Counted from the stretch's first letter, positions 5,618-37,899 are shown. The stretch: DNA of 38,165 bases from a candidate division WOR-3 bacterium (GCA_965649115.1 CBFGJN010000014.1:1-38165); one strand, 5' to 3'. The notes: generated by a model not told the origin, from the sequence alone. Numbers and translations: made by a program.

Positions 5618-7744
5618 TTAAAATATCATTCTAATTGAAAAATATGGTAAAATTGGAAGTTGATAAATTTCTTCTTTAATTGGTGGATTTTTTGAATAAT
5701 CATAAAAACTTATAAATAAATTCTTGAAATTGAAAACATTTATAATGCCAAAACCATATTCTATTGACTTAAATTTTCCTTCGTAGTAAATATCAATTCT
5801 TTTATAATCAGGAAGTGTCAGTTTATTTCTTGGACTATAAATCTCATACCAAAATGGGAATTCAAGACCACCATCAGGATAAACACTACCAACTAAATAT
5901 CTTGCAATAATGTCAGTATAAGGGGAACCACTCGCATAAGTTAATTTAATTCCTAAATTGCCTTTAAAGATATTCCTCTTTAAAATAACATTTAAGACAT
6001 GCCTTCTATCATAACTCGTCCTATACCATAGCGTTTCGCTTTCAAGCTTACTATAAGAAAAACTTAAGGTCCAAGAAATTTCAAAATTATTATTTTCAAA
6101 CCACAGATCTAAACCATAAGATAATGCCTTTGAATTTTTAAGCAATTCTTTCTCTATATTATTAATATCCGTTCTATATGGATTAAGTTCAACACTGTTT
6201 AAATAAGGCTTAATAAATGCCACAACTTCAAAATTTCCAAACTTTGGAATACCTTCAAAACCAAAAATTAAATGTGGTGTTCTGACAGGTTTCAAATTTT
6301 CAAAAACTGGAACCCAAAAATAAAATGAAGATATTTGAAGATTATTAGTAGAAAAACCAATAGCATACTGATTATATAGTCCAATTGCACTTTTGAAGGC
6401 ATATATATCAGTTAAAAAGTACTTAATTTGAAATCTTGGTTCAAATGAGAAATCTTCTTTATAGTAATAGCCCGTTAATTTATAATAATTAAATCTACTG
6501 CCAAAGTTCAAAGTAAATTTATTAGATTCCTTTTTAATATCAAAAAAAACTGATGATATTATTGGACTTCCTTCTCTATTTATTCTAATACCGAATATAT
6601 TGCTCTTATAGTAGCCACTAATATAAGCAAAATCAAAACCAAAATTAAAATTCCATAAATTTTGAATATATTGAAAATCTAATCTACTTGAAATAATAGA
6701 AAATCTATTCTCAACACCAAAAGCACCTGAAAATAACCCAAAATCAATAAAATTTTGTGAGTAAGATAAATAACTATTTAAAAGATAATTGTTCCAAAAT
6801 GTTTTATAATTTAAGCCTAAACCTCTATTACCCCAGTTTGAGCTAACCAAATTTGAAAATTCCAAATTATCTTCACTATTTATATAGGAAAGACTTAAAT
6901 TCGTTATGTCAGAAAAACTATATGAGATTTTTCCTGCGATATCATAAAAGCCATAAGGAATATCAAAATTAAACAATTTAGCAAATTCCTTAATGAATGT
7001 CCTCCTAAAACTAACTATAAAAGAACTATATTTGCTAAATGGACCTTCAAATAAAAACTTTGTTGTAATAGGACTTATAACGGAAATTGTTTTATATTCA
7101 TTATAATTTCCTTCTCTCATTTTAGCATCAATTATTGAACCAGTAGCATTTCCATACTTTGCACTATATCCACCCTTTAAAAATTGAAAAGAACTCAAAA
7201 CATCTAAATCAAAAATAGAAACAAAACTTCCAAGGTGATAAGGATTATATAAGAATATACCATCTAAAATTGTTAAATTTTCAAATGGTGCAGAACCCCT
7301 AACCGAAAACCTACCTGAAAAATCATTTACAAATACAACTCCACTTTGAATTTGAATGACACGCATCAAATCTTTCTCAAATGGACTAGGAAGTGTTTTA
7401 TATTTATCTATATTTTGAATAGTGTTTATTGAAAAATCTCTTTTAAATGTTTCCTTTTTACCACTAACAATAATTTCAGATAATTTTATACCGACTGGTT
7501 TTAAATAAACTTTAATTTGAACATTTCCTTTCAATTCAATTTCTTTTTGATATTCTTCATAACCAAGTGCAGAAATTTTTAGTTTATATTTTCCTTCTTT
7601 TAATTTTATTTGAAAAAAACCTTTTTCATCACAATAAGTTCCATAATAATTTTCTATTTCAACCGCACAGTAAGGAATACCATCTCTTGTTAATTCATCT
7701 ACAACAATTCCACTTAAAATTTGAGAAAAAATCAAATTGAGCAT
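5618..7744 (-). CDS. TonB-dependent receptor-like outer-membrane protein
   Basis: N-terminal carboxypeptidase-regulatory-like domain, plug (VRGS...LDG...NPYHL...KGGYSAKYG), aromatic beta-strands and C-terminal Phe. Confidence 0.85.
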   Translation of the reverse strand: MLNLIFSQILSGIVVDELTRDGIPYCAVEIENYYGTYCDEKGFFQIKLKEGKYKLKISALGYEEYQKEIELKGNVQIKVYLKPVGIKLSEIIVSGKKETFKRDFSINTIQNIDKYKTLPSPFEKDLMRVIQIQSGVVFVNDFSGRFSVRGSAPFENLTILDGIFLYNPYHLGSFVSIFDLDVLSSFQFLKGGYSAKYGNATGSIIDAKMREGNYNEYKTISVISPITTKFLFEGPFSKYSSFIVSFRRTFIKEFAKLFNFDIPYGFYDIAGKISYSFSDITNLSLSYINSEDNLEFSNLVSSNWGNRGLGLNYKTFWNNYLLNSYLSYSQNFIDFGLFSGAFGVENRFSIISSRLDFQYIQNLWNFNFGFDFAYISGYYKSNIFGIRINREGSPIISSVFFDIKKESNKFTLNFGSRFNYYKLTGYYYKEDFSFEPRFQIKYFLTDIYAFKSAIGLYNQYAIGFSTNNLQISSFYFWVPVFENLKPVRTPHLIFGFEGIPKFGNFEVVAFIKPYLNSVELNPYRTDINNIEKELLKNSKALSYGLDLWFENNNFEISWTLSFSYSKLESETLWYRTSYDRRHVLNVILKRNIFKGNLGIKLTYASGSPYTDIIARYLVGSVYPDGGLEFPFWYEIYSPRNKLTLPDYKRIDIYYEGKFKSIEYGFGIINVFNFKNLFISFYDYSKNPPIKEEIYQLPILPYFSIRMIF

Positions 7745-9102
7745 TAATTTTCATTTATTTTAAAATTCCTTATTTCAACCTTATCAAAACCCTTCAAATT
7801 AAATTTAAACTGACTTGTGTCTGCTAAAACTAATATAACATAATCTTTCGGAAGAAATTTTTTAGCAGTTTCATTAACTTCATTTAAATTCAATTTTTTA
7901 ATTTCTTCAATATCCTTTATCCAATAATCATAAGGCAAATTCCACAATTTAGCATTAAATATAATGTTTGCTACTTGCGAATAGGTTTGACCTTGTCTTG
8001 CTATTGAACCTTCGTAATAACTTTTAGCAGATTTTAGTTCTTCTTCTTTAAAACCTTCATTTATTGCTTTATTTATTTCATCTAATAATAACTCAATAGC
8101 ATGATTACCACTTTCAACTTTTGTTGAAAATCCAGCAATGAATGAACCTTCAAAAATTTTGTTATCTCTTTTATAACCACCATCTATACGACTATAAGCC
8201 CAATATGCATAACCATACTTTACCCTAATTGTCTTTACAATCCTAGAAGAAAATCCAGAACCACCAAGAATATAATTTACTAATCTGAATTTATTAAAGT
8301 CTTTATTATCCCTACTTATTCCTTTTGAACCAAGAAATACAAATGCCTGATTTATTCCAGGAAAGTGATAAATATAAACTTCTTTACCTTTTGGATAATT
8401 AATATCACTAATTTGATTTCTATTTAACGTTTTCTTTTGCCACTTTGAGAAAAACTTTTCAACAATTTCAATTGACTTACTTGGTTCTAAATCTGAAACA
8501 ACAATTAATGTTGAATTATTTGGAATGTAAAATTTATTGTAAAAATCAATAACATCTTCTCTTTTTATATTTAATAGAGAATTTTCATAACCTTCCGTTG
8601 GATGTGCAAGGGGATGGTCTTTATATAGAAGTTGAGAAAGTAATATACTTGAAACATAATCTGGATCGCTTTTTTGAGATATGATATTACTTATTGTTCT
8701 TTTTTTAACTTTTTCAAATTCTTCATTTGGAAATGTTGGATTTAAAATAATCTCACTTAATAATTCTAAGGATTTTTCAGCATTTTGTGTTAAAGATTTT
8801 ATGCTTATATTAGTTGTCCAATCATCTACTGAAATTGATAAATTCGTTCCAAGCTCTTCAAACTTTTCAGCTATTTCAATAGCATTATATTTTTTTGTTC
8901 CTTCATCAATTAAATTGGCTGTTAAATTTGCTAAACCTTCTTTACCTTTTGGATCATCAACCGATCCAGCATTTATAATCAAACTTAACTGAAAAATTGG
9001 TAGCTTCTTTTTCTGAACCGCAACGACATTTAATCCATTTGAAAGAACCTTTTCTTTTATATTATCCATCATCTTTACCTCCATAACTAAAATTAAAATC
9101 AT
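7744..9102 (-). CDS. M16B metallopeptidase, non-catalytic subunit
   Basis: M16-type sequence with HxxEH replaced by NLTAN and an R/Y pair (IRVKYGYAY). An alternative start near 9072 follows GGAGGT. Confidence 0.87.
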   Translation of the reverse strand: MILILVMEVKMMDNIKEKVLSNGLNVVAVQKKKLPIFQLSLIINAGSVDDPKGKEGLANLTANLIDEGTKKYNAIEIAEKFEELGTNLSISVDDWTTNISIKSLTQNAEKSLELLSEIILNPTFPNEEFEKVKKRTISNIISQKSDPDYVSSILLSQLLYKDHPLAHPTEGYENSLLNIKREDVIDFYNKFYIPNNSTLIVVSDLEPSKSIEIVEKFFSKWQKKTLNRNQISDINYPKGKEVYIYHFPGINQAFVFLGSKGISRDNKDFNKFRLVNYILGGSGFSSRIVKTIRVKYGYAYWAYSRIDGGYKRDNKIFEGSFIAGFSTKVESGNHAIELLLDEINKAINEGFKEEELKSAKSYYEGSIARQGQTYSQVANIIFNAKLWNLPYDYWIKDIEEIKKLNLNEVNETAKKFLPKDYVILVLADTSQFKFNLKGFDKVEIRNFKINEN

Positions 9103-9106
9103 TTTT

Positions 9107-10429
9107 TTACCTCCTTATTTCGCTAGCTTTTTTAAGTCCTTCAATATATGCTTGAATATCTGATGGTGGTATTGGATGAACAATAATTGTTGTTTTATTA
9201 TCATCATTTATATATTCATTTATAATTTTTTCAACATCTTGTGTGCTAACTTTTTGAATGAGTTTTGGATATTCATTTATATAATTAGGATTTTCTGTAT
9301 TTATTAATGCTTCACCAAGTTGAAAACCAAGTCTAACAACTGATTCTCTTGAATATACTAAATCAGCTAATTGACTATTTTTTGCTCTCGCTAATTCTTC
9401 TTCTCCAACTTTATTTTTTCTTAAATTTTCAACTTCTTCATTTATAGCTTTTTCAAGTTCATTTATATCTTTTCCTTGCTGTAATGTCGCAAAAATAATT
9501 AATAAACCCTCATCTTTTAATCCATAATAAAAAGCACTAATTGAACTTGCTAATTGCTTTTCATAAACAATAGATTTATATAATTTTGATGTTTTCCCAC
9601 CTCCAAGAATATCAGCAAGTAATGAAACAGCTGGTGAATACTCACTACTAGCTTTCGGAACTCTATAAGCAATAGCTATATATGTTGCAAAACCTTCTTT
9701 CTTGATTTCTGTTCTTCTTGGTCCTCTCTGCTTAGGTTCAGTTGTATAAAACTTAGGAATTTCCTTACTTTCATACTTTCCAAAGTACTTTTCGGCAATT
9801 TTAAAAACTTCTTCCGCCTTAACATCACCAACTACTATTAAATAAGCATTATTTGGTGCATAATATGTTTCATAAAATTGTTTAACTTTTTCTAAATTAA
9901 CATTTTCTAAATCACTTCTCCAACCTATAACTGGATTTCTATATGGATGAGCCCAAAAAATTGTTGAAAATAATGCTTCCCATAATGCACCCCTTTGATC
10001 ATTTTCTGTTCTCCATCTTCTTTCTTCAATAACAACATTTCTCTCTTCATCAAATCCATCAAATGTTATATTTCTCATTCTATCAGCTTCCATATAAAGA
10101 ACTTTTTCAACAGCACTTGAAGGAATTTCACACCAATAAGCGGTTTCATCAAAACTCGTGAAAGCATTATCCATACCACCAAGCTCATCAATGATTTGAG
10201 AGAAATCTTTAATCTCTTTTGTTCCCCTAAACATCATATGTTCTAACAAATGTGCAGAACCTGTAATTCCAACAACTTCATTTTTTGAACCAACCTTGTA
10301 CCAAACTTGGACAGTAGCAACAGGAGAAGAATGTTCTTCAATCACATAAACTTTTAAACCATTTTTTAGTGTTTTTTCTTTTATATCCAACGGTTTAATC
10401 TCTATAAAAGATTGTAGCATAATGAACAT
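9107..10429 (-). CDS. M16B metallopeptidase, catalytic subunit
   Basis: Zinc motif HLLEHMMFRGT, plus NAFTSFDET, EERNVVIEE and HPYRNPVIG. Confidence 0.92.
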   Translation of the reverse strand: MFIMLQSFIEIKPLDIKEKTLKNGLKVYVIEEHSSPVATVQVWYKVGSKNEVVGITGSAHLLEHMMFRGTKEIKDFSQIIDELGGMDNAFTSFDETAYWCEIPSSAVEKVLYMEADRMRNITFDGFDEERNVVIEERRWRTENDQRGALWEALFSTIFWAHPYRNPVIGWRSDLENVNLEKVKQFYETYYAPNNAYLIVVGDVKAEEVFKIAEKYFGKYESKEIPKFYTTEPKQRGPRRTEIKKEGFATYIAIAYRVPKASSEYSPAVSLLADILGGGKTSKLYKSIVYEKQLASSISAFYYGLKDEGLLIIFATLQQGKDINELEKAINEEVENLRKNKVGEEELARAKNSQLADLVYSRESVVRLGFQLGEALINTENPNYINEYPKLIQKVSTQDVEKIINEYINDDNKTTIIVHPIPPSDIQAYIEGLKKASEIRR

Positions 10430-29252: not shown

Positions 29253-31499
29253 CTACCTTAACATTCTTCTACCTGTACTTTCAATTTCAGTTTCTCTCTT
29301 AGAAGGAGGTTTAAATTGCTTACTAAAATTATATTGTAAAACAAAATTTAAATTTACACGTTCAAAATTATTGTACTTATAGGTAGAGTAATTATTTCCT
29401 TTGATATTTATTTCATACTTATAAATTCTAAAAGGGTCTTGTGCCATAAGGATTAATGAAAAGTTTTTTAATTGTGTCATAAAAGCTATTTCGCTATACA
29501 TTTGAGGTCCATATGTTCCCCAAACTGCCTCTTGAGGAGAAACATAATCAAATCTTGCTTGTATAAATCCTAAAAGAGCAAAAATTGTTAATGATAATGA
29601 GCTACCATATTCACTTGAATTTATATTACTATAAGAATATCTTCTGTAATATGGACTTAAAGCAAGGTTCAACTTTCCATTAAATAAATTAGCTTCAATA
29701 CCTATTGAAGTTCCATAATCATAACCTTTTCCTGCATTTATAAATCTTTTCAAATTAGTCTTGCTTGTACTATCATATGGATATTCCTCTATGTCTATAA
29801 TATTTTCTCTTAATGATGTGTAAATTTCAGGATTTAATGATATATTCCCTAATAATAAATTAGCTCCAAATTCAAGAGCATTTGAATATTCTGGAAGAAC
29901 ATTTATATTACCTTCAACTATTTCAGTTCTCGATTCAATACTTTTCACAGGTAAAAACATAGTTTCATTTGGTCTAAAAATACGACGAGATAAACCAAAA
30001 TAAAAACTATTATTACCATATGGTAAGGATAGGTTAAGTGTTGGGAAAAGAGATAAATATCTAATTTCTATGGGTTGATTTTGTGTGCTAACATTGAAAA
30101 TTCGGTTTATATACTCTAAGCGAAGACCAATTTTATAATTTACATTTCTAAAACTTGAAGACAAAGTGCTATAAAATGCATGAACTTGGTCATTACCTTC
30201 ATAAGTATAGTTTGGAATTTGCGGGAAGTAAGATAAGTTTCTTTCAAATTCGTTTTGAGATTTAGAAGAGAAGATTGATAATTTATAACCTGTATTTAGT
30301 TCAAAATTTCCAAAATTAGTTATATATTTAATCTCACCATATCCATAACCTTGATTGAAGTTTCCAATTGAACGAATATATCCATCAGAAGCACTATCAG
30401 AAGTATTTAGATTTCTTGGAAAATAATAACTATAAAATGTAAGTGAAACTTTATTATTTTCATCAATTTTTCTATCATAACCAAGAAGAAAATTACCCAT
30501 CAAGTAAGATGATTGAAAGTTATTTATAACATTAAAATTATTGTCATTTAAAGTATAAATGTACGAAGAAATAGGTTTGAGATTTTTATAAGTTCCTCCT
30601 AATTCAAATGTAATCTCATCACTTTGAGATGGCAAAAACTTAAAACCTATATTAGTCATTCCTATAATTGCTTGATTCTTAGAGTATCCATTTATAATAA
30701 CACTATCACTTTGAAAAACATATTTACCATAAAGCATCATTTTTAAAATTTGTCTTGTCAATTGTAGTCTTATATATGGTTGAAATTTGCCTGTATTTAA
30801 GCCTATAAGGGCGTTTATATCACCACCAAGATAGGAGTTCAAAGTTCCTTGCAAATTTATACCATATCCACTTTCCTTCCTGCGTTTTAATATAACATTT
30901 ATTATAGCATTTCCTTCTGCATCGTATTCAGCACTTGGATTTGTAATAACTTCTATTCTCTCTATTTGAGATGCTGGTATATCTTTAAGAGTTAGATTTG
31001 TAGGACGTCCATCAACAAGCAAAAGGTACTTATTACTACCTCTAACTTTAACATTACCTTGGGGGTCAACTTCAACGCCTGGAACACCTTTTAAAACATC
31101 AGAGGCACTTCCAGCCTTACCTACAATATCAGCATTTGGTTGAACAACTTTCTTATCCAACTCGTAGCGCACTTTTGAAGGCTTAGCTTCAACTACTACT
31201 TCCTTTGTGGTTATAGGTTTAGGAGATAAAATTATATCCCCTAAATTTGTATCAGCTTTTATTACAAGAGGTCCAATAACCTTCTTCTGATAACCTATGA
31301 ATTCCACAGATAATAGGTATTCGCCAGGTTTGATATCCTTTATTGTGAAGATGCCATCTTCATTAGTATAAGTTCCTCCAATTTGTGAAGAATCTGGAAG
31401 CTTTTGAACAATAACCACTGCATAGGCCATAGGCTTAGCGCTTTCTTCATCAACAACCTTTCCAGAAATTGTCAAACTTATTAGAATCGTCAATGCCAT
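29253..31499 (-). CDS. TonB-dependent receptor-like outer-membrane beta-barrel in the lanthipeptide cluster
   Basis: Carboxypeptidase-regulatory-like N-terminus, plug LKGVPGVEVD...IERIEVITNPSAEYDAEG and barrel motifs LFPTLNL and GN..V.PEYS. Confidence 0.85.
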   Translation of the reverse strand: MALTILISLTISGKVVDEESAKPMAYAVVIVQKLPDSSQIGGTYTNEDGIFTIKDIKPGEYLLSVEFIGYQKKVIGPLVIKADTNLGDIILSPKPITTKEVVVEAKPSKVRYELDKKVVQPNADIVGKAGSASDVLKGVPGVEVDPQGNVKVRGSNKYLLLVDGRPTNLTLKDIPASQIERIEVITNPSAEYDAEGNAIINVILKRRKESGYGINLQGTLNSYLGGDINALIGLNTGKFQPYIRLQLTRQILKMMLYGKYVFQSDSVIINGYSKNQAIIGMTNIGFKFLPSQSDEITFELGGTYKNLKPISSYIYTLNDNNFNVINNFQSSYLMGNFLLGYDRKIDENNKVSLTFYSYYFPRNLNTSDSASDGYIRSIGNFNQGYGYGEIKYITNFGNFELNTGYKLSIFSSKSQNEFERNLSYFPQIPNYTYEGNDQVHAFYSTLSSSFRNVNYKIGLRLEYINRIFNVSTQNQPIEIRYLSLFPTLNLSLPYGNNSFYFGLSRRIFRPNETMFLPVKSIESRTEIVEGNINVLPEYSNALEFGANLLLGNISLNPEIYTSLRENIIDIEEYPYDSTSKTNLKRFINAGKGYDYGTSIGIEANLFNGKLNLALSPYYRRYSYSNINSSEYGSSLSLTIFALLGFIQARFDYVSPQEAVWGTYGPQMYSEIAFMTQLKNFSLILMAQDPFRIYKYEINIKGNNYSTYKYNNFERVNLNFVLQYNFSKQFKPPSKRETEIESTGRRMLR

Positions 31500-31534
31500 A
31501 CCTAATAATTAACGAAAAAGACTATAAAAAAGTT

Positions 31535-33073
31535 TCAAGTTAAATTCCATAACTTTCCTTCTTTTATTTCAAAAATTTTATCAAAATCTTTAAATAAACT
31601 TTCATAACTGTGAGTCACTACAATAATTGTTTTCTCTCTTAAAAGGGATAAAATTTTATTAGCAACTTTTGGAACGCTTTCCTTATCAATATTTTCAAAA
31701 GGTTCGTCAAAAATGTAGCAATCAGCTGGTTTTGAGAGTGTTAAAGCAATAGAAAATTTCTTATATTGACCAGCAGATAATTGTGAAGGTTTTCTATCCG
31801 TAGGCAATTCAAAATACTTTAAAAGTTCTAATAAAACCTCCTTGTTAAAAATTTCAATAATATTCAGATATTCAAAGATGGGAATGTCTGGTATATATTT
31901 AGGCAATAGAGATATATCATTAAATGTAATAACTTCACCATGCTTAGGCTCTAATAAACCTGCAATTATTTTAAGTAAAGTGCTTTTACCTGAACCATTT
32001 GGACCTACTATTAAAATTTTTTCTCCTTTGTAAATTTCTAAATTTATTCCTTTAATTATTTCTTGGGAATCATAAGAGAAATAAACATTTTTCAAAATTA
32101 TTAAATTCCCTCTTTTTACTCCATCTGTTTTGGAAATTTCCAAAACTTCATCAATCCTTCTTAATTGAGAAAATCTACTTATTGCCTCTGAAACTGAATC
32201 GAAAATTACACCAAGAGAAGAATAAAAAGGATAATATGCAGAGAAGAAACCAAAGAAATCACCAGCTGTTATCTTTCCAATAAACAAGAGGTAAATGTTT
32301 ATGCCAATAAAAGTTATTTGAACAATAACATTAGCAATTCTACTTAAAAGTTCATAGTTTTGGTTAATTTTTGTGAATTTATATAAGGTATTTAAAAATT
32401 CAGAGGCATACAAAAGAATATGATAAGTAATAAACTTAATGAGATTAAATATGTTTATAAATTCAAAGGATTTTAATGCATCAGCTAAAACTCCCCTAAG
32501 TTGTGCCTCCGTTTCCATCCTTTTTACTGACAAACTGGCAACTTTATTTTGAAAGCTTAATGTTATAACGAAGGATATTATAAGCATAGGAATAATTACA
32601 ATTGTTGAAATTGGTGATAGAATAATCATAGCTATTAAACGGGATATTAAGCTCATAATAGAGCTTGAAATTGTAAAAATCAATGATAATATAGATATTA
32701 TAATCTCTTGTGGCTCTTCATATATACGACTTAAATAATAACCTGTGTCCCTTTTAGAAACTTCCAAGTATGGCAAGCGATAATAATATGGTAGTAATTT
32801 TTCTAAAATATAAAACCTAATTTTGTTTTCAAATTTAGTTCTAAAAAGCATATAAAAATATTCTACTATTAATACAAAAAATCCCAAAATAACAAATATA
32901 GAGAAAAATACTAAAAATTTATAAAAATTCTTCTCCTGTAATGCAATATCAAAAAGGTACTTTTGAATGATAGGCTCAAAAAAGCCAATTGTTGGAAATA
33001 ATATAACTAATAGGAAGAGAATAAAAAGTATAGATAAAATAAATTTTTTAATAACTTCCTTTAAAAGTCCCAT
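31535..33073 (-). CDS. ABC exporter (fused permease/ATPase), LanT-like without a peptidase domain
   Basis: TM domain plus GPNGSGKST, LSAGQ, DEP and VTH. Overlaps the lanKC 3' end. Confidence 0.9.
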   Translation of the reverse strand: MGLLKEVIKKFILSILFILFLLVILFPTIGFFEPIIQKYLFDIALQEKNFYKFLVFFSIFVILGFFVLIVEYFYMLFRTKFENKIRFYILEKLLPYYYRLPYLEVSKRDTGYYLSRIYEEPQEIIISILSLIFTISSSIMSLISRLIAMIILSPISTIVIIPMLIISFVITLSFQNKVASLSVKRMETEAQLRGVLADALKSFEFINIFNLIKFITYHILLYASEFLNTLYKFTKINQNYELLSRIANVIVQITFIGINIYLLFIGKITAGDFFGFFSAYYPFYSSLGVIFDSVSEAISRFSQLRRIDEVLEISKTDGVKRGNLIILKNVYFSYDSQEIIKGINLEIYKGEKILIVGPNGSGKSTLLKIIAGLLEPKHGEVITFNDISLLPKYIPDIPIFEYLNIIEIFNKEVLLELLKYFELPTDRKPSQLSAGQYKKFSIALTLSKPADCYIFDEPFENIDKESVPKVANKILSLLREKTIIVVTHSYESLFKDFDKIFEIKEGKLWNLT

Positions 33074-35583
33074 AGTGTTCGTGATTCTCTTCTATCCTTA
33101 AATCTAAGTAGGAAATCCAATACACCAGCAGAACCTGTACCCCAATCGTCTGTAAAATCTTGATAATTATCCGTAGGATATAATATTTCCCCATTTTCAC
33201 TTTCAAAAGCAAACAACCTTAATCCATCCAATACCTTACTTATTCTTGTTCTCTTTCCAAGAAATAGTTCAACATCTAAAAGACTTTCGCCTAATCCTGC
33301 TAACCCCAAAAGTTGCCCACTAAAAATTGTAAATTTTCTCTCTAAATCGGGTAAAGCCCTGTTTATATAATCCAAAATCCAATTTTCTTTAAATATCTTA
33401 TATAATCTAACTAAAACCCCTACAACCCCAGCACTACCATATTCAACATATGGTAATAGCGTAGTGCGACCCTCTTCACTTGGCCAGCTTAGGTATCCAT
33501 TTACTTCTCTTCCTGCTTTTAAAGTGTGTTTTAGGAACTTAAAGGATGCTTCTTTTACCCTTTCATCTCTAACAATTTCGTACAATTTTCCAAGAAATAG
33601 AGATATACCTGCTCCACCATGACCATAACCAAACTTTATTGAACCATCAAATGAAGGCAAGAAAAGCGTACCATTATCTTCCTTAGCATTTCTCAAAAGC
33701 CATTCATAACATTTCATAGCCTCTTTAAGAAAAATTTCTTCTTTTGTCCCATAATAAAACTTTAAGTTAGTAAATCCATATCCAGCGACACCGTAGAATA
33801 TACCTCCATCCCCGTAAATTAATTTATGTTCCCAAGCCTTTTTTAGAATACTTATTGACTCCTCAAACATTCCCATGTCCCACAAAGTCCAAGCCAATCC
33901 ACATAAACCAACATACAAACCTGGCGGTGTCTCATCCTTCTCAAGTTTCAAAATCATATCAAGCCAATCTTTTGGGGGTGAAATATTTAAGCGTTTGAGA
34001 ACATAGTAAATACCTGTATAACCATAAGCAAATCCAAAAGGAACTAAACCATTCAAATCAGCATAAATTTTAAGATTGTTATTTTTTAATCGTTTAATTA
34101 GTCCGCTTATCAAATTATTAATCTCAATATCAATTTTGGGTTTTCTTGGTCTTTTTAAAACTTTGGCAGTCCCTATTATACGCTTAACTAAAATAGTTGG
34201 TTTATTACGAACATTTGGATTATTAGACAAATTTTTTTTGACAATCTCCTTTATAGTCTTAGGCAATTTATATTCGTAAAGTAAGTTTTCAAAAAATTGG
34301 TCCCAAAGTTTTGGTGCCAAATGGAATAGATGATTATTTGTAAAAAGAAGTGAATGAATGATCATTGCAAAGGCATAATAATCGTCTTCGTATCTCGGTT
34401 TTTCACCTTTGACAACTTGTGGGGAAGCCATGCCAGGTGTGAAAACATTGTAATAATTATCACTTCCTATAATATAAGCTCCTTCAAAGTCTATAAACTT
34501 AACTTTAAGCGTTTGCAGGTTCAAAAGGATATTATTGGGTGATATATCAACTACCACTATTTTATTAGAATGAAATGTTTCTAAGGCTATTGCAATGTTT
34601 TCAATTATTTTCAAAAACTTATTAAGCCATTCCTCTCTATCCTTATCAGTAGCATTCGTATTTAAAACTGGAGCATATAAAGCCACAAAAGAGCGCAAAT
34701 CTATACCATCAACAAATTCTTCAACCAAAAACCAATGCTCCCATTCTTGAAATAGTTCATAAGGTTTTGGAACTATATCCGTATCTTTCATTCTATTTAA
34801 AATTTCATATTCTTTTTTAAGAAGCATCACAGCATCTGTTCCTTTTTCGTCCATACTTACATATGGTCTTGCCTCTTTTATAACAACCCTGTTTCCACCA
34901 ATTATATCCAAAGCCTCATATACTCCACCATTATTTGAGAATTGTATTGCAGATATAACTTTGTATTTCCCTTTTAGAATAATCTCACGAGGTGGCTTTA
35001 TAGGTTCGTTTCCAAATGGGTCCTCAACCCATGGTGGAATGGAATAATATGGAAGGCGAATGTCATCATAAGGTTTACCATCAGGTGTTAATATAATTGG
35101 AACTTTTGTTCCATCTACTTTTATTCTTTCCCTTAAAACAAATCCTCCATATCTATAATATAACACCCTACAATCCTTGTATCTCATATCAGAAAGAATA
35201 TATGGTCCAACCATATCTTTCAAATTCTCATAAAGTCTTTCCAATAATTCTTTAAATGTTTTATCATCAGGAGGATAAATAGTTATAAATTTACCACTTC
35301 CACCCCTCTGGAATATACGAGAATTACGAAGAGCTAATGTTGATTTATCCTTTAAGAACTTGAAATTTACGCTAAAAGAACATATAATTGGAACCGAAAT
35401 ACGAAGTATCTCCTCTGCATTTAAGACTGTTGCACTTATATGGATTTTCCAACCCTGCTCTGGAAAGTTGTTTTCTTCACTATAACAAAAAATCCAATCA
35501 TTTATAGGACTTAACTTCCAATCTTTCGGAATAATATTTTTAACTAATTCAATAAAATCGTCTACTTCTTCTTTACGAAACAT
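33061..35583 (-). CDS. lanKC: Class III lanthipeptide synthetase (lyase-kinase-cyclase)
   Basis: Lyase QGWKIHIS, SGKFITIYP, GPYILSD, YYRYGGF. Kinase GGVY, VVIKEARP, DISPNN, IDFE. The cyclase lacks Zn ligands (PYVEYGSAG, GQLLGLAG). Confidence 0.93.
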   Translation of the reverse strand: MFRKEEVDDFIELVKNIIPKDWKLSPINDWIFCYSEENNFPEQGWKIHISATVLNAEEILRISVPIICSFSVNFKFLKDKSTLALRNSRIFQRGGSGKFITIYPPDDKTFKELLERLYENLKDMVGPYILSDMRYKDCRVLYYRYGGFVLRERIKVDGTKVPIILTPDGKPYDDIRLPYYSIPPWVEDPFGNEPIKPPREIILKGKYKVISAIQFSNNGGVYEALDIIGGNRVVIKEARPYVSMDEKGTDAVMLLKKEYEILNRMKDTDIVPKPYELFQEWEHWFLVEEFVDGIDLRSFVALYAPVLNTNATDKDREEWLNKFLKIIENIAIALETFHSNKIVVVDISPNNILLNLQTLKVKFIDFEGAYIIGSDNYYNVFTPGMASPQVVKGEKPRYEDDYYAFAMIIHSLLFTNNHLFHLAPKLWDQFFENLLYEYKLPKTIKEIVKKNLSNNPNVRNKPTILVKRIIGTAKVLKRPRKPKIDIEINNLISGLIKRLKNNNLKIYADLNGLVPFGFAYGYTGIYYVLKRLNISPPKDWLDMILKLEKDETPPGLYVGLCGLAWTLWDMGMFEESISILKKAWEHKLIYGDGGIFYGVAGYGFTNLKFYYGTKEEIFLKEAMKCYEWLLRNAKEDNGTLFLPSFDGSIKFGYGHGGAGISLFLGKLYEIVRDERVKEASFKFLKHTLKAGREVNGYLSWPSEEGRTTLLPYVEYGSAGVVGVLVRLYKIFKENWILDYINRALPDLERKFTIFSGQLLGLAGLGESLLDVELFLGKRTRISKVLDGLRLFAFESENGEILYPTDNYQDFTDDWGTGSAGVLDFLLRFKDRRESRTLWDF

Positions 35584-35756
35584 TCAAGACTTAGGGAAGA
35601 TTTAAGGTTTAATCTTCCACGCTTTTTCTTTCCACAACCCGTTCCAAATATGCTTATAGTTGAACAAAAAGAAGCACTCATAGTACTTGTATTATTGCTT
35701 TTTCCATTTTTATCTCCACCTTCAATTAAAGCTTGTAAAGAAAGTACCAAAAACAT
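35562..35756 (-). CDS. Class III lanthipeptide precursor A2 (64 aa, three SxxSx(n)C motifs)
   Basis: Leader VLSLQAL; cores STMSASFC, STISIFGTGC and SSLSLEC; SD AAGGAG. Confidence 0.88.
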   Translation of the reverse strand: MFLVLSLQALIEGGDKNGKSNNTSTMSASFCSTISIFGTGCGKKKRGRLNLKSSLSLECFVKKK

Positions 35757-35794
35757 CCTTTAAACTCCTTTTTTATAAATTTTATTATTTATAA

Positions 35795-35816
35795 TGTGGG
35801 GCATATCCACCCCACA
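35795..35816 (-). promoter_or_regulatory. Stem-loop between the two precursor genes
   Basis: TGTGGGG-N8-CCCCACA about 10 nt after the A1 stop, with only a weak U tract. Confidence 0.55.
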
Positions 35817-35825
35817 ACTTAGGCC

Positions 35826-35954
35826 TCATAGACAAATGAGACTTAGACTTGAACAAAAGGAGTAGCTTGCACTGCTAGGAGCAGGGGGTTTGTTTAGATT
35901 CAACCCATCATCCCCATTTGCCTTTAGTGTTTGTAATGCCAAAACACTACTCAT
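35826..35954 (-). CDS. Class III lanthipeptide precursor A1 (42 aa)
   Basis: Manual translation MSSVLALQTLKANGDDGLNLNKPPAPSSASYSFCSSLSLICL*, with SD AAGGAGG. Not in the ORF track. Confidence 0.9.
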   Translation of the reverse strand: MSSVLALQTLKANGDDGLNLNKPPAPSSASYSFCSSLSLICL

Positions 35955-35969
35955 CTTTTAACCTCCTTT

Positions 35970-36527
35970 TCAACTCGTAATTATTATAATACACTCACAA
36001 TAAGTAAAGTTCTGCGTTATTATACAATTACATATAGCTATAACTCTATTTAACTCTTTTGTATATTTCTTTGAAATCTCAGATAATTTTGATATTGTGC
36101 TTTTAAGTGAAGAACTATCATATATCTTGCTTTCAAGGACAGCTAATTTTTCACTTACAAAAACATCTTTACTTATTGATTTGAGTTCCTTTTCAAAGCT
36201 TTTTACATCCTTTATATTTTCTTTGGGTTTTATAATAATTTCTTCAATTTCTGTAAAGTCGGACTTAAAAAGTTCTTCCAAACCCTTTAAATCATTTATA
36301 TTATATTCTCTAACTATCTGAACTTTTGAAACATTTGAAGTTTGAGTAATTTTCTTTAGAATTTCTTCTATATTACCTGTATCAGAAAGAATTATTGTAA
36401 ATTGTGAAGGCTGAGATTGAAGCTGAGAAAGAATTTGAGAAAGATTTTGAAAATTACCCTCAATTATAAATGTCTTTCTTTGAACTTTCAAAGTATCATC
36501 TAACAAAAATAAAATTAAACTTATCAT
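35970..36527 (-). CDS. Hypothetical exported protein
   Basis: 185-aa ORF with a short hydrophobic N-terminus and two CxC near the C-terminus, tightly packed in the operon. Confidence 0.6.
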   Translation of the reverse strand: MISLILFLLDDTLKVQRKTFIIEGNFQNLSQILSQLQSQPSQFTIILSDTGNIEEILKKITQTSNVSKVQIVREYNINDLKGLEELFKSDFTEIEEIIIKPKENIKDVKSFEKELKSISKDVFVSEKLAVLESKIYDSSSLKSTISKLSEISKKYTKELNRVIAICNCIITQNFTYCECIIIITS

Positions 36528-36542
36528 AATTATAACCTACTT

Positions 36543-37052
36543 TTAAGGTAATTTACAGCAAACACCACATGTGCTACAACCCATACATTCACCCCCACCA
36601 GGACAACAAACAGTTCTATCACTACAAACACAACAACCTGGCAAAACACTCATAATAGTATCTTTTACTGATAAACTATATGAACCAATTTTGATTTGAT
36701 GTAAGTTATTAAAATTTAAGGAAGCTTCTGAGATAGACGCTTTCTCATTCCATAAGCTCTTTATCATATCACAAGATAATTTATTCAAGTTAGAAATGTC
36801 AGATTTTTGAAAAAGCTTAAATTTAATCTCCTTATTTTCTATTTTGGAAAGTAGAATTTCATTGTTTAAATAAATAAGCGAAACAACGCCTTCACTTATA
36901 GCCATTTTCTTATCATTTACCTCTATCCAAAAAAGTTTCTGAAGCTTTGGTTTTGGAAAATTTTGATTTATCTCATCAGACGGTTCGGTTGATTTTTTAG
37001 AACAAGAAATTAGAGCAAGCACTATGAATATACTAGGTATAATATTTTTCAT
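36543..37052 (-). CDS. Lipoprotein with 10-Cys C-terminal domain
   Basis: Lipobox LALISC, SD AAGGAGG and tail CCVCSDRTVCCPGGGECMGCSTCGVCC. Confidence 0.75.
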   Translation of the reverse strand: MKNIIPSIFIVLALISCSKKSTEPSDEINQNFPKPKLQKLFWIEVNDKKMAISEGVVSLIYLNNEILLSKIENKEIKFKLFQKSDISNLNKLSCDMIKSLWNEKASISEASLNFNNLHQIKIGSYSLSVKDTIMSVLPGCCVCSDRTVCCPGGGECMGCSTCGVCCKLP

Positions 37053-37080: not shown

Positions 37081-37200
37081 GCCCGGGCTACGACCTACTC
37101 TCCCACCCCCTTGCGAGGGTAGTACCATCGGCCCTGGTGGGCTTAACGACCGGGTTCGGAATGGAACCGGGTGTTTCCCCACCGGCATGGTAGCCCGGGT
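37081..37200 (-). rRNA. rrf: 5S rRNA
   Basis: Reverse complement contains CCATTCCGAACCCGGTCGTTAAG, GCCGATGGTACT and GGGAGAGTAGG, with terminal helix CCCGGGCTAC/GTAGCCCGGG. Confidence 0.96.
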
Positions 37201-37209
37201 AAATAAAAA

Positions 37210-37809
37210 TTAGTAAATTATTAGCTTCTTAAAATTACCATTTTCGGTCTTTATCAAATAAACACCATTTTTTAGCTTTAAGGTTTTTAGATTTTCAGTT
37301 TTTCCCTTAAATAAAACCTTTCCTGATAAGTCGTATAGTATAACTTCACTATTTGATAACTTTTCAACTTCAGGTTTGGCAAGAAATGAACGAGAATTAT
37401 CTTTTGTCTTTAAAATAGCCCAACAAGTTCCATCAGAATTGCATTTACAGAATATACCACTACAAGTTGATTTTTCACACTGGCAAGTCGCCTTATCCTG
37501 CTTATTAGGCGATATTACAAAAGCCAAAAATGGAACACATTTGGAGAGAATTAAACCTTTTATATTTTCAAGTTCATTGCTTATTTTTTCTAAGTTAGCT
37601 ATATTAGACTGAATATAATTCTCTATAAAGGAGGTATCTTTAAGCATCACATTTTCATCTATTTCCTTAATCATAAGCTCTAAATATGAATTTAATTTAT
37701 CAAGTGTTTCATTAGAAGGACAGGTATTGGAGGTTTGAATTTCATCCTTCAAGTTCAAAAGCTTATAATATATATCTTCCAAAGATGTTATTATAATGAG
37801 GTTTAACAT
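37210..37809 (-). CDS. Secreted protein with Cys-rich module and T9SS-like CTD, inside the 23S-5S spacer
   Basis: SD AAGGAGG plus ATG 37809 (MLNLIIITS), CQCEKSTCSGIFCKCNSDGTC and C-terminus LYDLSGK...LKNGVYL...KKLII. Confidence 0.8.
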   Translation of the reverse strand: MLNLIIITSLEDIYYKLLNLKDEIQTSNTCPSNETLDKLNSYLELMIKEIDENVMLKDTSFIENYIQSNIANLEKISNELENIKGLILSKCVPFLAFVISPNKQDKATCQCEKSTCSGIFCKCNSDGTCWAILKTKDNSRSFLAKPEVEKLSNSEVILYDLSGKVLFKGKTENLKTLKLKNGVYLIKTENGNFKKLIIY

Positions 37810-37899
37810 AGTTTTACCTCCTTTTTTCAAGTTCAAAAGCTTATAATATATATCTTCCAGATGTTATTATAATGAGATTTAACATAGTTTTACCTCCTT
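37748..37899. repeat. Tandem direct duplication of RBS plus gene start (76/74 bp)
   Basis: 37748-37823 and 37826-37899 differ by a 2-bp deletion and one substitution. Confidence 0.9.

Follow-up and report, generated by a model that had tools for sequence, protein, structure and literature searches.

A predicted class III lanthipeptide operon with a tailed precursor and a TonB-dependent-transporter-like barrel gene in a probably thermophilic WOR-3 bacterium

We describe a predicted lanthipeptide gene cluster in a 38,165-nucleotide stretch of DNA (the window; GCA_965649115.1, CBFGJN010000014.1:1-38165) from a bacterium of candidate division WOR-3, the phylum that NCBI names Caldifarciminota. 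Five co-oriented genes on the minus strand encode two short precursor peptides (A1 and A2), a lanthionine synthetase of the LanKC type, an ATP-binding cassette (ABC) half-transporter and an outer-membrane barrel (Table 1); an earlier reading made from the DNA alone (the sequence-only reading) had proposed this block, and each of the five genes lies where it was placed. We take the block for an intact, accessory class III lanthipeptide operon of a thermophilic diderm that works by the pathway set out in the Discussion, and give this reading a probability of about 80%. Its gene set is that of a canonical class III system, to which a 'tailed' precursor and a partner gene for a barrel resembling TonB-dependent transporters (TBDTs) add two features that are conserved and undescribed.

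Results

The LanKC enzyme

The LanKC protein scores 647.4 bits against the NCBIfam model of class III enzymes (NF038151, cut-off 575; the same on a genome-level rerun) and falls short of the class IV (LanL) model (NF038150, 478.2 bits, cut-off 650). Three Pfam domains follow one another, RamC_N (residues 14-195, 202.6 bits), Pkinase (217-461, 69.1 bits) and LANC_like (595-835, 58.4 bits), and the closest solved structure is that of a class III LanKC, ThurKC (8sao, 8sap and 8sam), matched over residues 29-825 with an E value of 6e-75. The catalytic lyase residues of ThurKC, K65, H67, K94, K108, K117, D152, R163 and R191 (PMC10604976, in part), correspond to K46, H48, K75, R89, K98, D132, R144 and R176, as read off a pairwise alignment in which the chain numbering is that of the paper minus 3. 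Seven of the eight are identical, and these seven are invariant in an alignment of 10 sequences of the clade; the eighth, K108 to R89, is a conservative replacement. Kinase residues K236, E258, D346 and N351 are retained, as is a DFE motif (D365-F366-E367).

Zinc ligands are absent, as the sequence-only reading gave for LanKC enzymes of this kind. The NisC zinc-ligand positions, which in ThurKC are occupied by S726, F770 and D771 (PMC10604976, in part), are E714, L759 and G760 here, so that there is no Cys-Cys-His set of the kind found in classes I, II and IV, and neither of the two Cys of the cyclase domain is conserved (present in 2/9 and 2/10 clade members). Since model score, the three domains, catalytic residues and zinc-ligand loss all agree, the protein is a class III synthetase in every respect that its sequence can test, as had been claimed. 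The choice between labionin and lanthionine is not readable from sequence (PMC7268733, in part), and the rings of the predicted products could be of either type.

Precursor peptides

A1 combines the leader motif VLALQ with a core of two SxxSx(2-3)C motifs, SSASYSFC and SSLSLIC. A2, of the tailed type, has the leader motif VLSLQ, two adjacent SxxSxnC motifs, a basic linker (GKKKRGR) and a third motif, KSSLSLEC. Both genes have AAAGGAG-type ribosome-binding sites, that upstream of the A1 ATG being AAAGGAGG. The sequence-only reading had expected LxLQ leaders and SxxSx(2-5)C cores, and this is what was found: the two peptides, with two and three core motifs respectively and genes directly upstream of LanKC, fall within the generic definition of a class III precursor, and by motif and context they are class III precursors that lie outside the three existing models (NF038154, NF038159 and Pfam RamS, PF19402). 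In a control over the whole genome (open reading frames, ORFs, of 25-130 residues; leader pattern [LIVMF]x[LIVM]Q), a leader-type motif together with two or more SxxSx(2-5)C motifs turned up in just 3 of 11,154 small ORFs; A1 and A2 are two of the three, and they adjoin the sole LanKC gene of the genome. By these counts the five-gene block is beyond chance occurrence.

The tailed architecture is conserved. Across seven aligned homologues of A2 the invariant positions are L5, S6, L7 and Q8 in the leader, S24, S27 and C31, S32 and S35, K52, S53, S54, L55 and S56, and C59, while the linker between the second ring and the tail is variable and mostly basic. A profile search of 5.8 billion proteins returned 13 clusters of this type, none with a Pfam family or functional name, and the KSSLS and Cys tail is kept by all 12 clusters other than that of A2. 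Four of 156 candidate precursors collected at 143 LanKC loci match the KSSLSxxC pattern, and they come from three lineages of the window's own LanKC clade; a variant tail at locus L002, KSSLSYCYC, falls outside the pattern. (G000 denotes the window's genome, and loci L001, L002 and L003 are those of genomes G057, G065 and G040.) Within the phylum a tailed precursor is present in 6/15 LanKC genomes (G000, G057, G065, G040, G035 and G075), and two-motif precursors of the A1 type accompany LanKC in the window, L001, L002, L012, G075 and G035. A hot-spring contig of run X7 has 82 other letters in place of 63 bases of the A1 core region (35827-35891), with flanks that match at about 91-97%, which hints that the A1 core varies between strains.

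Tandem precursors of a different make-up accompany another LanKC subfamily, which belongs to the same order of the phylum (L168, G071:C54, 11852-12652, and L169, G069:C68, 3163-3315). Their leaders read VL(R/K)LQKV; the cores, rich in His, Tyr and Ser, have one Cys (e.g. ...GSTYHAGSTLATRNCRME) and lack an SxxSxnC motif. These peptides may undergo other cross-links.

The ABC half-transporter

The ABC protein consists of a six-transmembrane-helix exporter-type domain (ABC_membrane, PF00664, residues 16-278) and a nucleotide-binding domain (ABC_tran, PF00005, 341-459). It has no C39 peptidase, its alignments to peptidase-containing bacteriocin ABC models starting at about model position 150, past the peptidase domain, and the absence of C39 places it outside the peptidase-containing subtype (ABC-transporter maturation and secretion proteins, AMS, or peptidase-containing ABC transporters, PCAT). 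All NCBIfam matches are far under their equivalog cut-offs (e.g. 152 against 500). Homologues (E < 1e-40) occur in 24 of the 143 LanKC loci, in several phyla, and in seven listed loci stand directly downstream of LanKC; we infer a LanT-like exporter.

The outer-membrane barrel

Pfam recognises CarboxypepD_reg, Plug (38.5 bits, cut-off 23.9) and OMP_b-brl_3 (124 bits) in the barrel protein. An AlphaFold model from an 18-sequence alignment (mean predicted local distance difference test score 86.2, predicted template-modelling score 0.75; low confidence at residues 1-6, 98-106 and 732-748) has a TBDT-like fold with the plug inside the barrel, and the top Foldseek matches in the PDB are all TBDTs (FyuA, PhuR, Cir, FecA, FhuA, OprC and others; E about 1e-20, probability 1.00). 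The sequence EVVVEA, in the disordered linker 98-106, is a possible TonB box. The genome has three TonB_C matches, five OEP (TolC-family) matches in three ORFs and three OMP_b-brl_3 matches.

Members of the barrel family stand directly beside LanKC/ABC genes in 6/15 LanKC genomes of the phylum (G000, G057, G062, G040, G035 and G075), three of the remaining genomes having contigs that end too early to judge, and were found in 6 of the 143 LanKC loci of the wider scans, which represent three lineages. This adjacency spans LanKC proteins that are 28-51% alike and two gene orders; in four lineages A2 separates ABC from the barrel gene. Tail and barrel co-occur in five of the six genomes that carry the tail, L001, G069 and G071 have overlapping ABC and barrel genes, and in genus g1 the cluster-type barrel is found in exactly the two LanKC-bearing genomes. 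The family occurs in 120/272 genomes of the phylum at about 1-3 copies each, and with so few copies per genome chance repetition of the adjacency is very unlikely. The repeated adjacency argues for a functional tie between barrel and cluster.

Two further features of these proteins were noted in passing. TBDT-like proteins of the lineage (29253-31499, 5618-7744, the paralogue on G000:C6 and homologues at L159-L167) have about 8-16 hydrophobic residues before CarboxypepD_reg, LanKC-linked or not, and no longer upstream frame is possible; if these are signal peptides, they are unusually short. At L002 (G065:C38, 7278-9257), where no TBDT-family gene was found, a 659-residue protein is encoded between precursors and LanKC, in the place that the barrel takes in other clusters; its only family match is weak (DUF5916, 27.4 bits, residues 217-278 only), too weak for us to propose it as a substitute for the barrel, and a DUF5916/CBM9 protein adjoins an unlinked barrel in G069:C7.

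Distribution and exchange of the cluster

Of 7,997 candidates scored in a protein search, 1,990 were LanKC relatives at E <= 0.001. In 185,579 species genomes, 509 stretches encoding such relatives were detected; the best 80 of the 509 include many from Acidobacteriota, along with Elusimicrobiota, Chloroflexota, Pseudomonadota, Deinococcota and further phyla. LanKC genes are already common, and routinely annotated, in metagenome-assembled genomes (MAGs) of diderms. The sequence-only reading is correct that characterised examples come mostly from Actinomycetota and Bacillota, but the rarity elsewhere that it implied goes too far.

In a FastTree phylogeny of 86 LanKC rows the window's enzyme falls in a 13-row clade apart from the Actinomycetota and Bacillus clades, with a support of 100 and a program warning of compositional bias in AT-rich rows. 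Its clade mates are P0001 (95% identical), P0002 (60%), the L001 group (51%), L002 (47%), L003 (41%), P0007 and L012, and all members with placed genomes (G000, G057, G040 and G065) belong to WOR-3. The record of L012 names an uncultured Candidatus Saccharibacteria bacterium; the locus reads LanKC-ABC-A2-TBDT, its A2 differs from that of the WOR-3 genome G075 at few of 58 residues, and, as Saccharibacteria are not expected to have an outer-membrane TBDT, mis-binning of the contig is possible.

A LanKC match was found in 15/272 species genomes of the phylum (12 above the cut-off), in 9/110 genera and in 2/5 species genomes of the window's own genus; the cluster is accessory to the genome. The same five genes recur in the same order at L001 in the congeneric G057, with a LanKC 51% identical; the order is KC-ABC-A2-barrel in L003/G040, G035, G075 and L012, and precursors-KC-ABC-barrel in G062. 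Core proteins of G000 and G057 (SecA, an EF-G-family GTPase and an M16B peptidase) are 94-97% identical, whereas LanKC is only 51% and the barrel 41% identical and the flanking genes differ, which suggests that cluster variants have been exchanged within the phylum and did not come by simple vertical descent. Comparison with empty sites in congeners found the flanking PLD gene only in G055, where the gene order is different.

Layout of the locus

The genes are tightly packed (Table 1), A2 and LanKC overlapping by 22 nt and LanKC and ABC by 13 nt, with 35 nt between ABC and barrel; translation of the window shows all five reading frames to be full length and uninterrupted. An 8,546-nt contig of hot-spring run X5, from another study, covers 29257-36584 with 271 differences (about 96% identity) and the cluster intact. 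The A1-A2 spacer, 35757-35835, folds at -19.1 kcal/mol (z = -2.1; 6 of 200 shuffles as stable) around a stem-loop that a consensus scan of the window did not score as a terminator, there being no T-run 3' of the hairpin; it is possibly a transcript attenuator or stabiliser. A promoter scan was uninformative: shuffles gave 43.3 ± 6.5 promoter-like sites and the real sequence 54.

Table 1. Positions in the window of the cluster genes and associated features
Feature	Position	Strand	Description
Precursor A1 gene	35826-35954	-	42 aa, MSSVLALQTLKANGDDGLNLNKPPAPSSASYSFCSSLSLICL
Precursor A2 gene	35562-35756	-	64 aa, MFLVLSLQALIEGGDKNGKSNNTSTMSASFCSTISIFGTGCGKKKRGRLNLKSSLSLECFVKKK
LanKC gene	33061-35583	-	840 aa, class III lanthionine synthetase
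ABC half-transporter gene	31535-33073	-	512 aa
Outer-membrane barrel gene	29253-31499	-	748 aa, TBDT-like
Stem-loop between A1 and A2	35795-35816	-	9 bp, G+C-rich; from the fold of 35757-35835
M16B pair	7744-10429	-	9107-10429 with HLLEH, 7744-9102 without; Pfam and motif check

Upstream of A1, a 185-residue ORF (35970-36527) has no Pfam or NCBIfam family and is unlike the ORF upstream of A1 in L001; on both grounds we excluded it from the cluster. Two genes upstream of A1, in the same orientation, a 169-residue ORF (36543-37052, minus strand) has a lipoprotein-like N-terminus and a Cys-rich end (11 Cys in the last 30 residues), and again no Pfam or NCBIfam family. A 208-residue ORF (37210-37836, minus strand) lies within the spacer of the rRNA operon, between the 3' end of the 23S gene (37925) and the 5S gene (37082-37198), and carries the C-terminal sorting domain TIGR04183 of the type IX secretion system (T9SS; 29.2 bits, cut-off 23). 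None of the six other genomes of the family yielded a full-length homologue, and other proteins match it in the sorting domain alone.

No protease is encoded within the cluster. M16B heterodimers cleave class III leaders in Bacillota, and some of these pairs are encoded outside the cluster (PMC8960859 and PMC10604976, both in part); the unlinked M16B pair of the window is, by analogy, a speculative candidate for the leader peptidase, and a candidate only, because congeners without LanKC (G055 and G056) carry it too. For the same reason a dedicated M16B leader peptidase was dropped. The pair opens an operon-like run (5618-10429, minus strand), 22 kb from the lanthipeptide cluster, that continues with a second CarboxypepD_reg/Plug TBDT-like gene and is possibly a peptide-processing and transport module.

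Host and habitat

The genome (1.85 Mb in 99 contigs, 94.5% complete) has a G+C content of 27.6%, and the host is AT-rich as first proposed. The further description of a probably thermophilic diderm from a lineage associated with the Fibrobacteres-Chlorobi-Bacteroidetes (FCB) group is also supported. The TonB_C, OEP/TolC and TBDT-family matches point to a diderm, and the sole cultured member of the phylum is a thermophile with inner and outer membranes (PMC12285271, in part). T9SS sorting domains in neighbouring genes fit an FCB-like lineage, and the phylum is WOR-3. The rRNA genes are far richer in G+C than the genome (23S fragment 61.8%, 5S gene 65.8%), and the predicted proteome has an IVYWREL fraction (Ile, Val, Tyr, Trp, Arg, Glu and Leu) of 0.435 and an (E+K)/(Q+H) ratio of 5.1. 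The formula of Zeldovich and colleagues, which is reported to relate the IVYWREL fraction to growth temperature, would put growth at about 73 °C, an estimate subject to the AT bias that inflates Ile, Tyr and Lys. Near-identical DNA was found in runs X2-X7, from five studies and all labelled hot springs metagenome; run X1 was excluded from this count as the possible source.

Discussion

Proposed pathway

In the pathway that we propose, A1 and A2 would be translated from strong ribosome-binding sites and bound by LanKC through their (V)L(A/S)LQ leader helices. The kinase would phosphorylate core Ser and the lyase eliminate the phosphate to give dehydroalanines, to which the zinc-free cyclase would add Cys thiols, giving A1 two rings and A2 three, whether lanthionine or labionin; the A2 product would then have a hydrophobic two-ring head, a cationic linker and a third, KSSLSxxC ring. 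The peptidase-less ABC half-transporter would carry the peptide over the inner membrane, the leader would be cut by a protease encoded elsewhere, for which the M16B pair of the window is one candidate, and the co-transcribed TBDT-like barrel is the most likely carrier over the outer membrane. What the sequences show is the gene content, the family memberships, the catalytic motifs and the conservation of cluster and precursor architecture; the chemical steps, the transport direction and any bioactivity are predictions.

That the barrel exports the peptide we rate at about even odds. The ABC protein is of exporter type, a Pfam scan recognised no membrane-fusion or TolC gene in the cluster, and TonB is present in the genome. 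Precedents by analogy are Oar, a CarboxypepD_reg-plug-barrel protein needed for secretion of the protease PopC (PMC6434023, in part), and the PF14905/TonB-linked outer-membrane proteins of Bacteroidetes graspetide loci, which are predicted exporters (PMC8939145, in part). A more specific form of the idea, in which ABC protein and barrel make up a dedicated two-step secretion route, driven by ATP at the inner and TonB at the outer membrane, with the barrel recognising the tail formed by linker and KSSLSxxC, is put forward tentatively, at odds clearly below even.

Alternative interpretations

A number of observations weigh against the pathway as proposed. In the enzyme, the general base of ThurKC, D771, is unmatched in the pairwise alignment, in which G760 takes its place; E766 and D770 are nearby and conserved, and cyclase-domain alignments are unreliable according to the ThurKC paper (PMC10604976, in part). 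Both precursors are below the cut-offs of the precursor hidden Markov models, A1 with 17.4 bits for RamS (cut-off 24.3), 18.9 for lanthi_III_b (30) and 17.5 for lanthi_III_a (22), and A2 with 19.4 bits (30). In the barrel, only about 10 hydrophobic residues precede the first domain, a very short signal peptide that the paralogues share, and every solved structure that resembles it is an importer; the TolC-family genes of the genome could serve export instead. Its nearest homologues, at 53% identity and about 880 bits, belong to another genus and do not adjoin a LanKC, and LanKC-linked and unlinked barrels are intermixed on an 18-row tree that calls for four or more changes of state. Lastly, no RNA run was among the runs matched with near-identical DNA.

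It is possible, though we think it doubtful, that lanthipeptides are made but that the barrel is an importer, returning the mature peptide, alone or within a complex, to the periplasm for signalling, for recycling or as a cargo carrier, in the manner of the TonB-dependent receptors for siderophores and some metallophores among the peptides made on ribosomes and modified after translation (RiPPs). TonB-dependent receptors for uptake are encoded within methanobactin and siderophore clusters themselves, and import is known for some ABC proteins of exporter fold. The structural matches to uptake receptors and the LanKC-free setting of the nearest homologues fit such a role, as do the TonB of the genome and a barrel paralogue in the same genome, which sits among sugar kinases like a nutrient-uptake receptor. 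Against it, A1 and A2 contain no His and would have no free thiol after ring formation, so that their products offer no obvious metal ligands; the same type of ABC protein occurs in LanKC loci of phyla that lack the barrel, as befits an exporter; and a Pfam scan recognised no periplasmic binding protein or sensor gene in the cluster.

That the barrel is a general-purpose transporter and a mere neighbour, the true cluster being A1-A2-LanKC-ABC, we consider improbable. The family is clearly not confined to LanKC clusters. It is present in 120 genomes of the phylum against the 15 with LanKC; G070 and G072, without any LanKC match, have a homologue that stands alone among housekeeping genes; and in G069 and G071 it follows the closest relative of the window's ABC gene (580-590 bits), LanKC being on another contig with a second ABC gene. 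The interleaved tree and the stand-alone homologues rule out a monophyletic, LanKC-dedicated barrel, and this spread, the unlinked homologues and the tree together make it a general family that has repeatedly gained or lost linkage to LanKC clusters. What mere neighbourhood explains poorly is the recurrence of the adjacency, in six of 15 LanKC genomes with three more unjudgeable, across divergent LanKC proteins and two gene orders, one with A2 between ABC and barrel, in genomes that hold few such genes, together with the exact match of barrel and LanKC in genus g1.

A silent or decaying relic that yields no mature peptide is very improbable, for although no RNA run was found, the distribution is patchy and G003 and G114, also of this phylum, have split LanKC genes, the five frames here are open and of full length, the catalytic residues are invariant in the clade alignment, the cluster is intact in run X5 and conservation across lineages extends to the precursors' leaders and ring residues.

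Significance

The characterised class III lanthipeptides in the literature that we compared all come from monoderms, Actinomycetota or Bacillota, and this literature holds no account of a class III peptide crossing the outer membrane of a diderm producer. In main texts (supplements apart) we found no such cluster described for WOR-3 or its newer names: two WOR-3 genomics and isolation papers, PMC12542636 and PMC12285271, contain neither 'lanthi' nor 'secondary metabolite', the former also lacks 'biosynthetic gene cluster' and the latter 'bacteriocin', and PMC11390488, in the part available, mentions both WOR-3 and lanthipeptide in unrelated contexts. No lanthipeptide cluster with a TBDT is described in the accessible parts of PMC8939145 or PMC7440613.

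The system offers a compact LanKC of 840 residues with its natural substrates, from an organism with features that point to growth near 70 °C. The predicted precursor architecture, in which a cationic linker joins two rings to a third, is new, conserved across lineages and without a functional name in the databases. With a peptide exporter and a TonB-dependent-type barrel recurrently linked in their genes, export of small peptides by such barrels can be put to the test. These expectations are tempered by the wide annotation of LanKC genes in MAGs of diderm phyla; the products are predicted ones, which may or may not be bioactive. Apart from the barrel gene and the three-part precursor the cluster is of an ordinary class III kind, and we regard it as of moderate interest.

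Comparison with known systems

The nearest characterised relative in structure is ThurKC with its substrate ThurA1 (Bacillus thuringiensis NRRL B-23139, subclass III-a), which shares the three-domain enzyme, the catalytic residues and the zinc-free cyclase. Recognition of an LxLQ-type leader helix and cleavage of the leader by a two-component zinc peptidase encoded apart (PMC10604976, in part) are further parallels. The host of ThurKC, however, is a monoderm and the system lacks an outer-membrane component; cores of ThurA type are rich in Ser/Thr and carry STxSNxC (PMC13504147), while those of the window repeat SxxSx(2-5)C, and the window's enzyme belongs with 12 others to a separate, well-supported clade. 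TherKC of Thermoactinomyces sp. DSM 45892 (subclass III-c) has a thermophile-type host and a cluster with an ABC transporter and M16B peptidase, but its host is one of the monoderm Bacillota, its substrate is of STxSNxC type and its dimer is cyclase-mediated (PMC13504147). The sequence-only reading had expected a thermostable LanKC and new products; the novelty lies in the precursor and the barrel, and not in a LanKC from a thermophile as such, TherKC having already been studied (PMC13504147).

The class III systems of actinomycetes, such as labyrinthopeptin/LabKC, curvopeptin/CurKC and SapB/RamC, resemble the window's in their RamC_N, kinase and LanC-like domains and in having no protease in the cluster. 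Their cores carry the SxxSxxxC motif (PMC7268733, in part; PMC13504147), and two-motif cores of this kind are like that of A1. Their LanKC proteins form a separate clade (support 100) and are about 29-31% identical to that of the window, and among the 156 candidate precursors from 143 loci none from outside the window's clade combines three motifs, a cationic linker and KSSLSxxC.

For the barrel, the RiPP neighbourhoods of Bacteroidetes graspetides offer the same Pfam family, PF14905, in an FCB-type organism, though the RiPP class there is of the ATP-grasp kind and export is likewise a prediction (PMC8939145, in part). Oar of Myxococcus xanthus is similar in architecture, with a CarboxypepD_reg extension, a plug with a TonB box, for which EVVVEA is a candidate here, and a TBDT barrel, and in its proposed two-step route, over the inner membrane first and then through the TBDT (PMC6434023, in part). 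The CarboxypepD_reg, plug and barrel arrangement is also that of the window's protein, and is common in uptake receptors of FCB-type bacteria. The cargo of Oar, PopC, is a folded protein whose export is proven by experiment, where here we infer it, the two being likened by architecture. Should two-step secretion prove true, this would be the first RiPP exported via a TBDT and the second outward TBDT after Oar/PopC, in a system simple enough to rebuild in E. coli.

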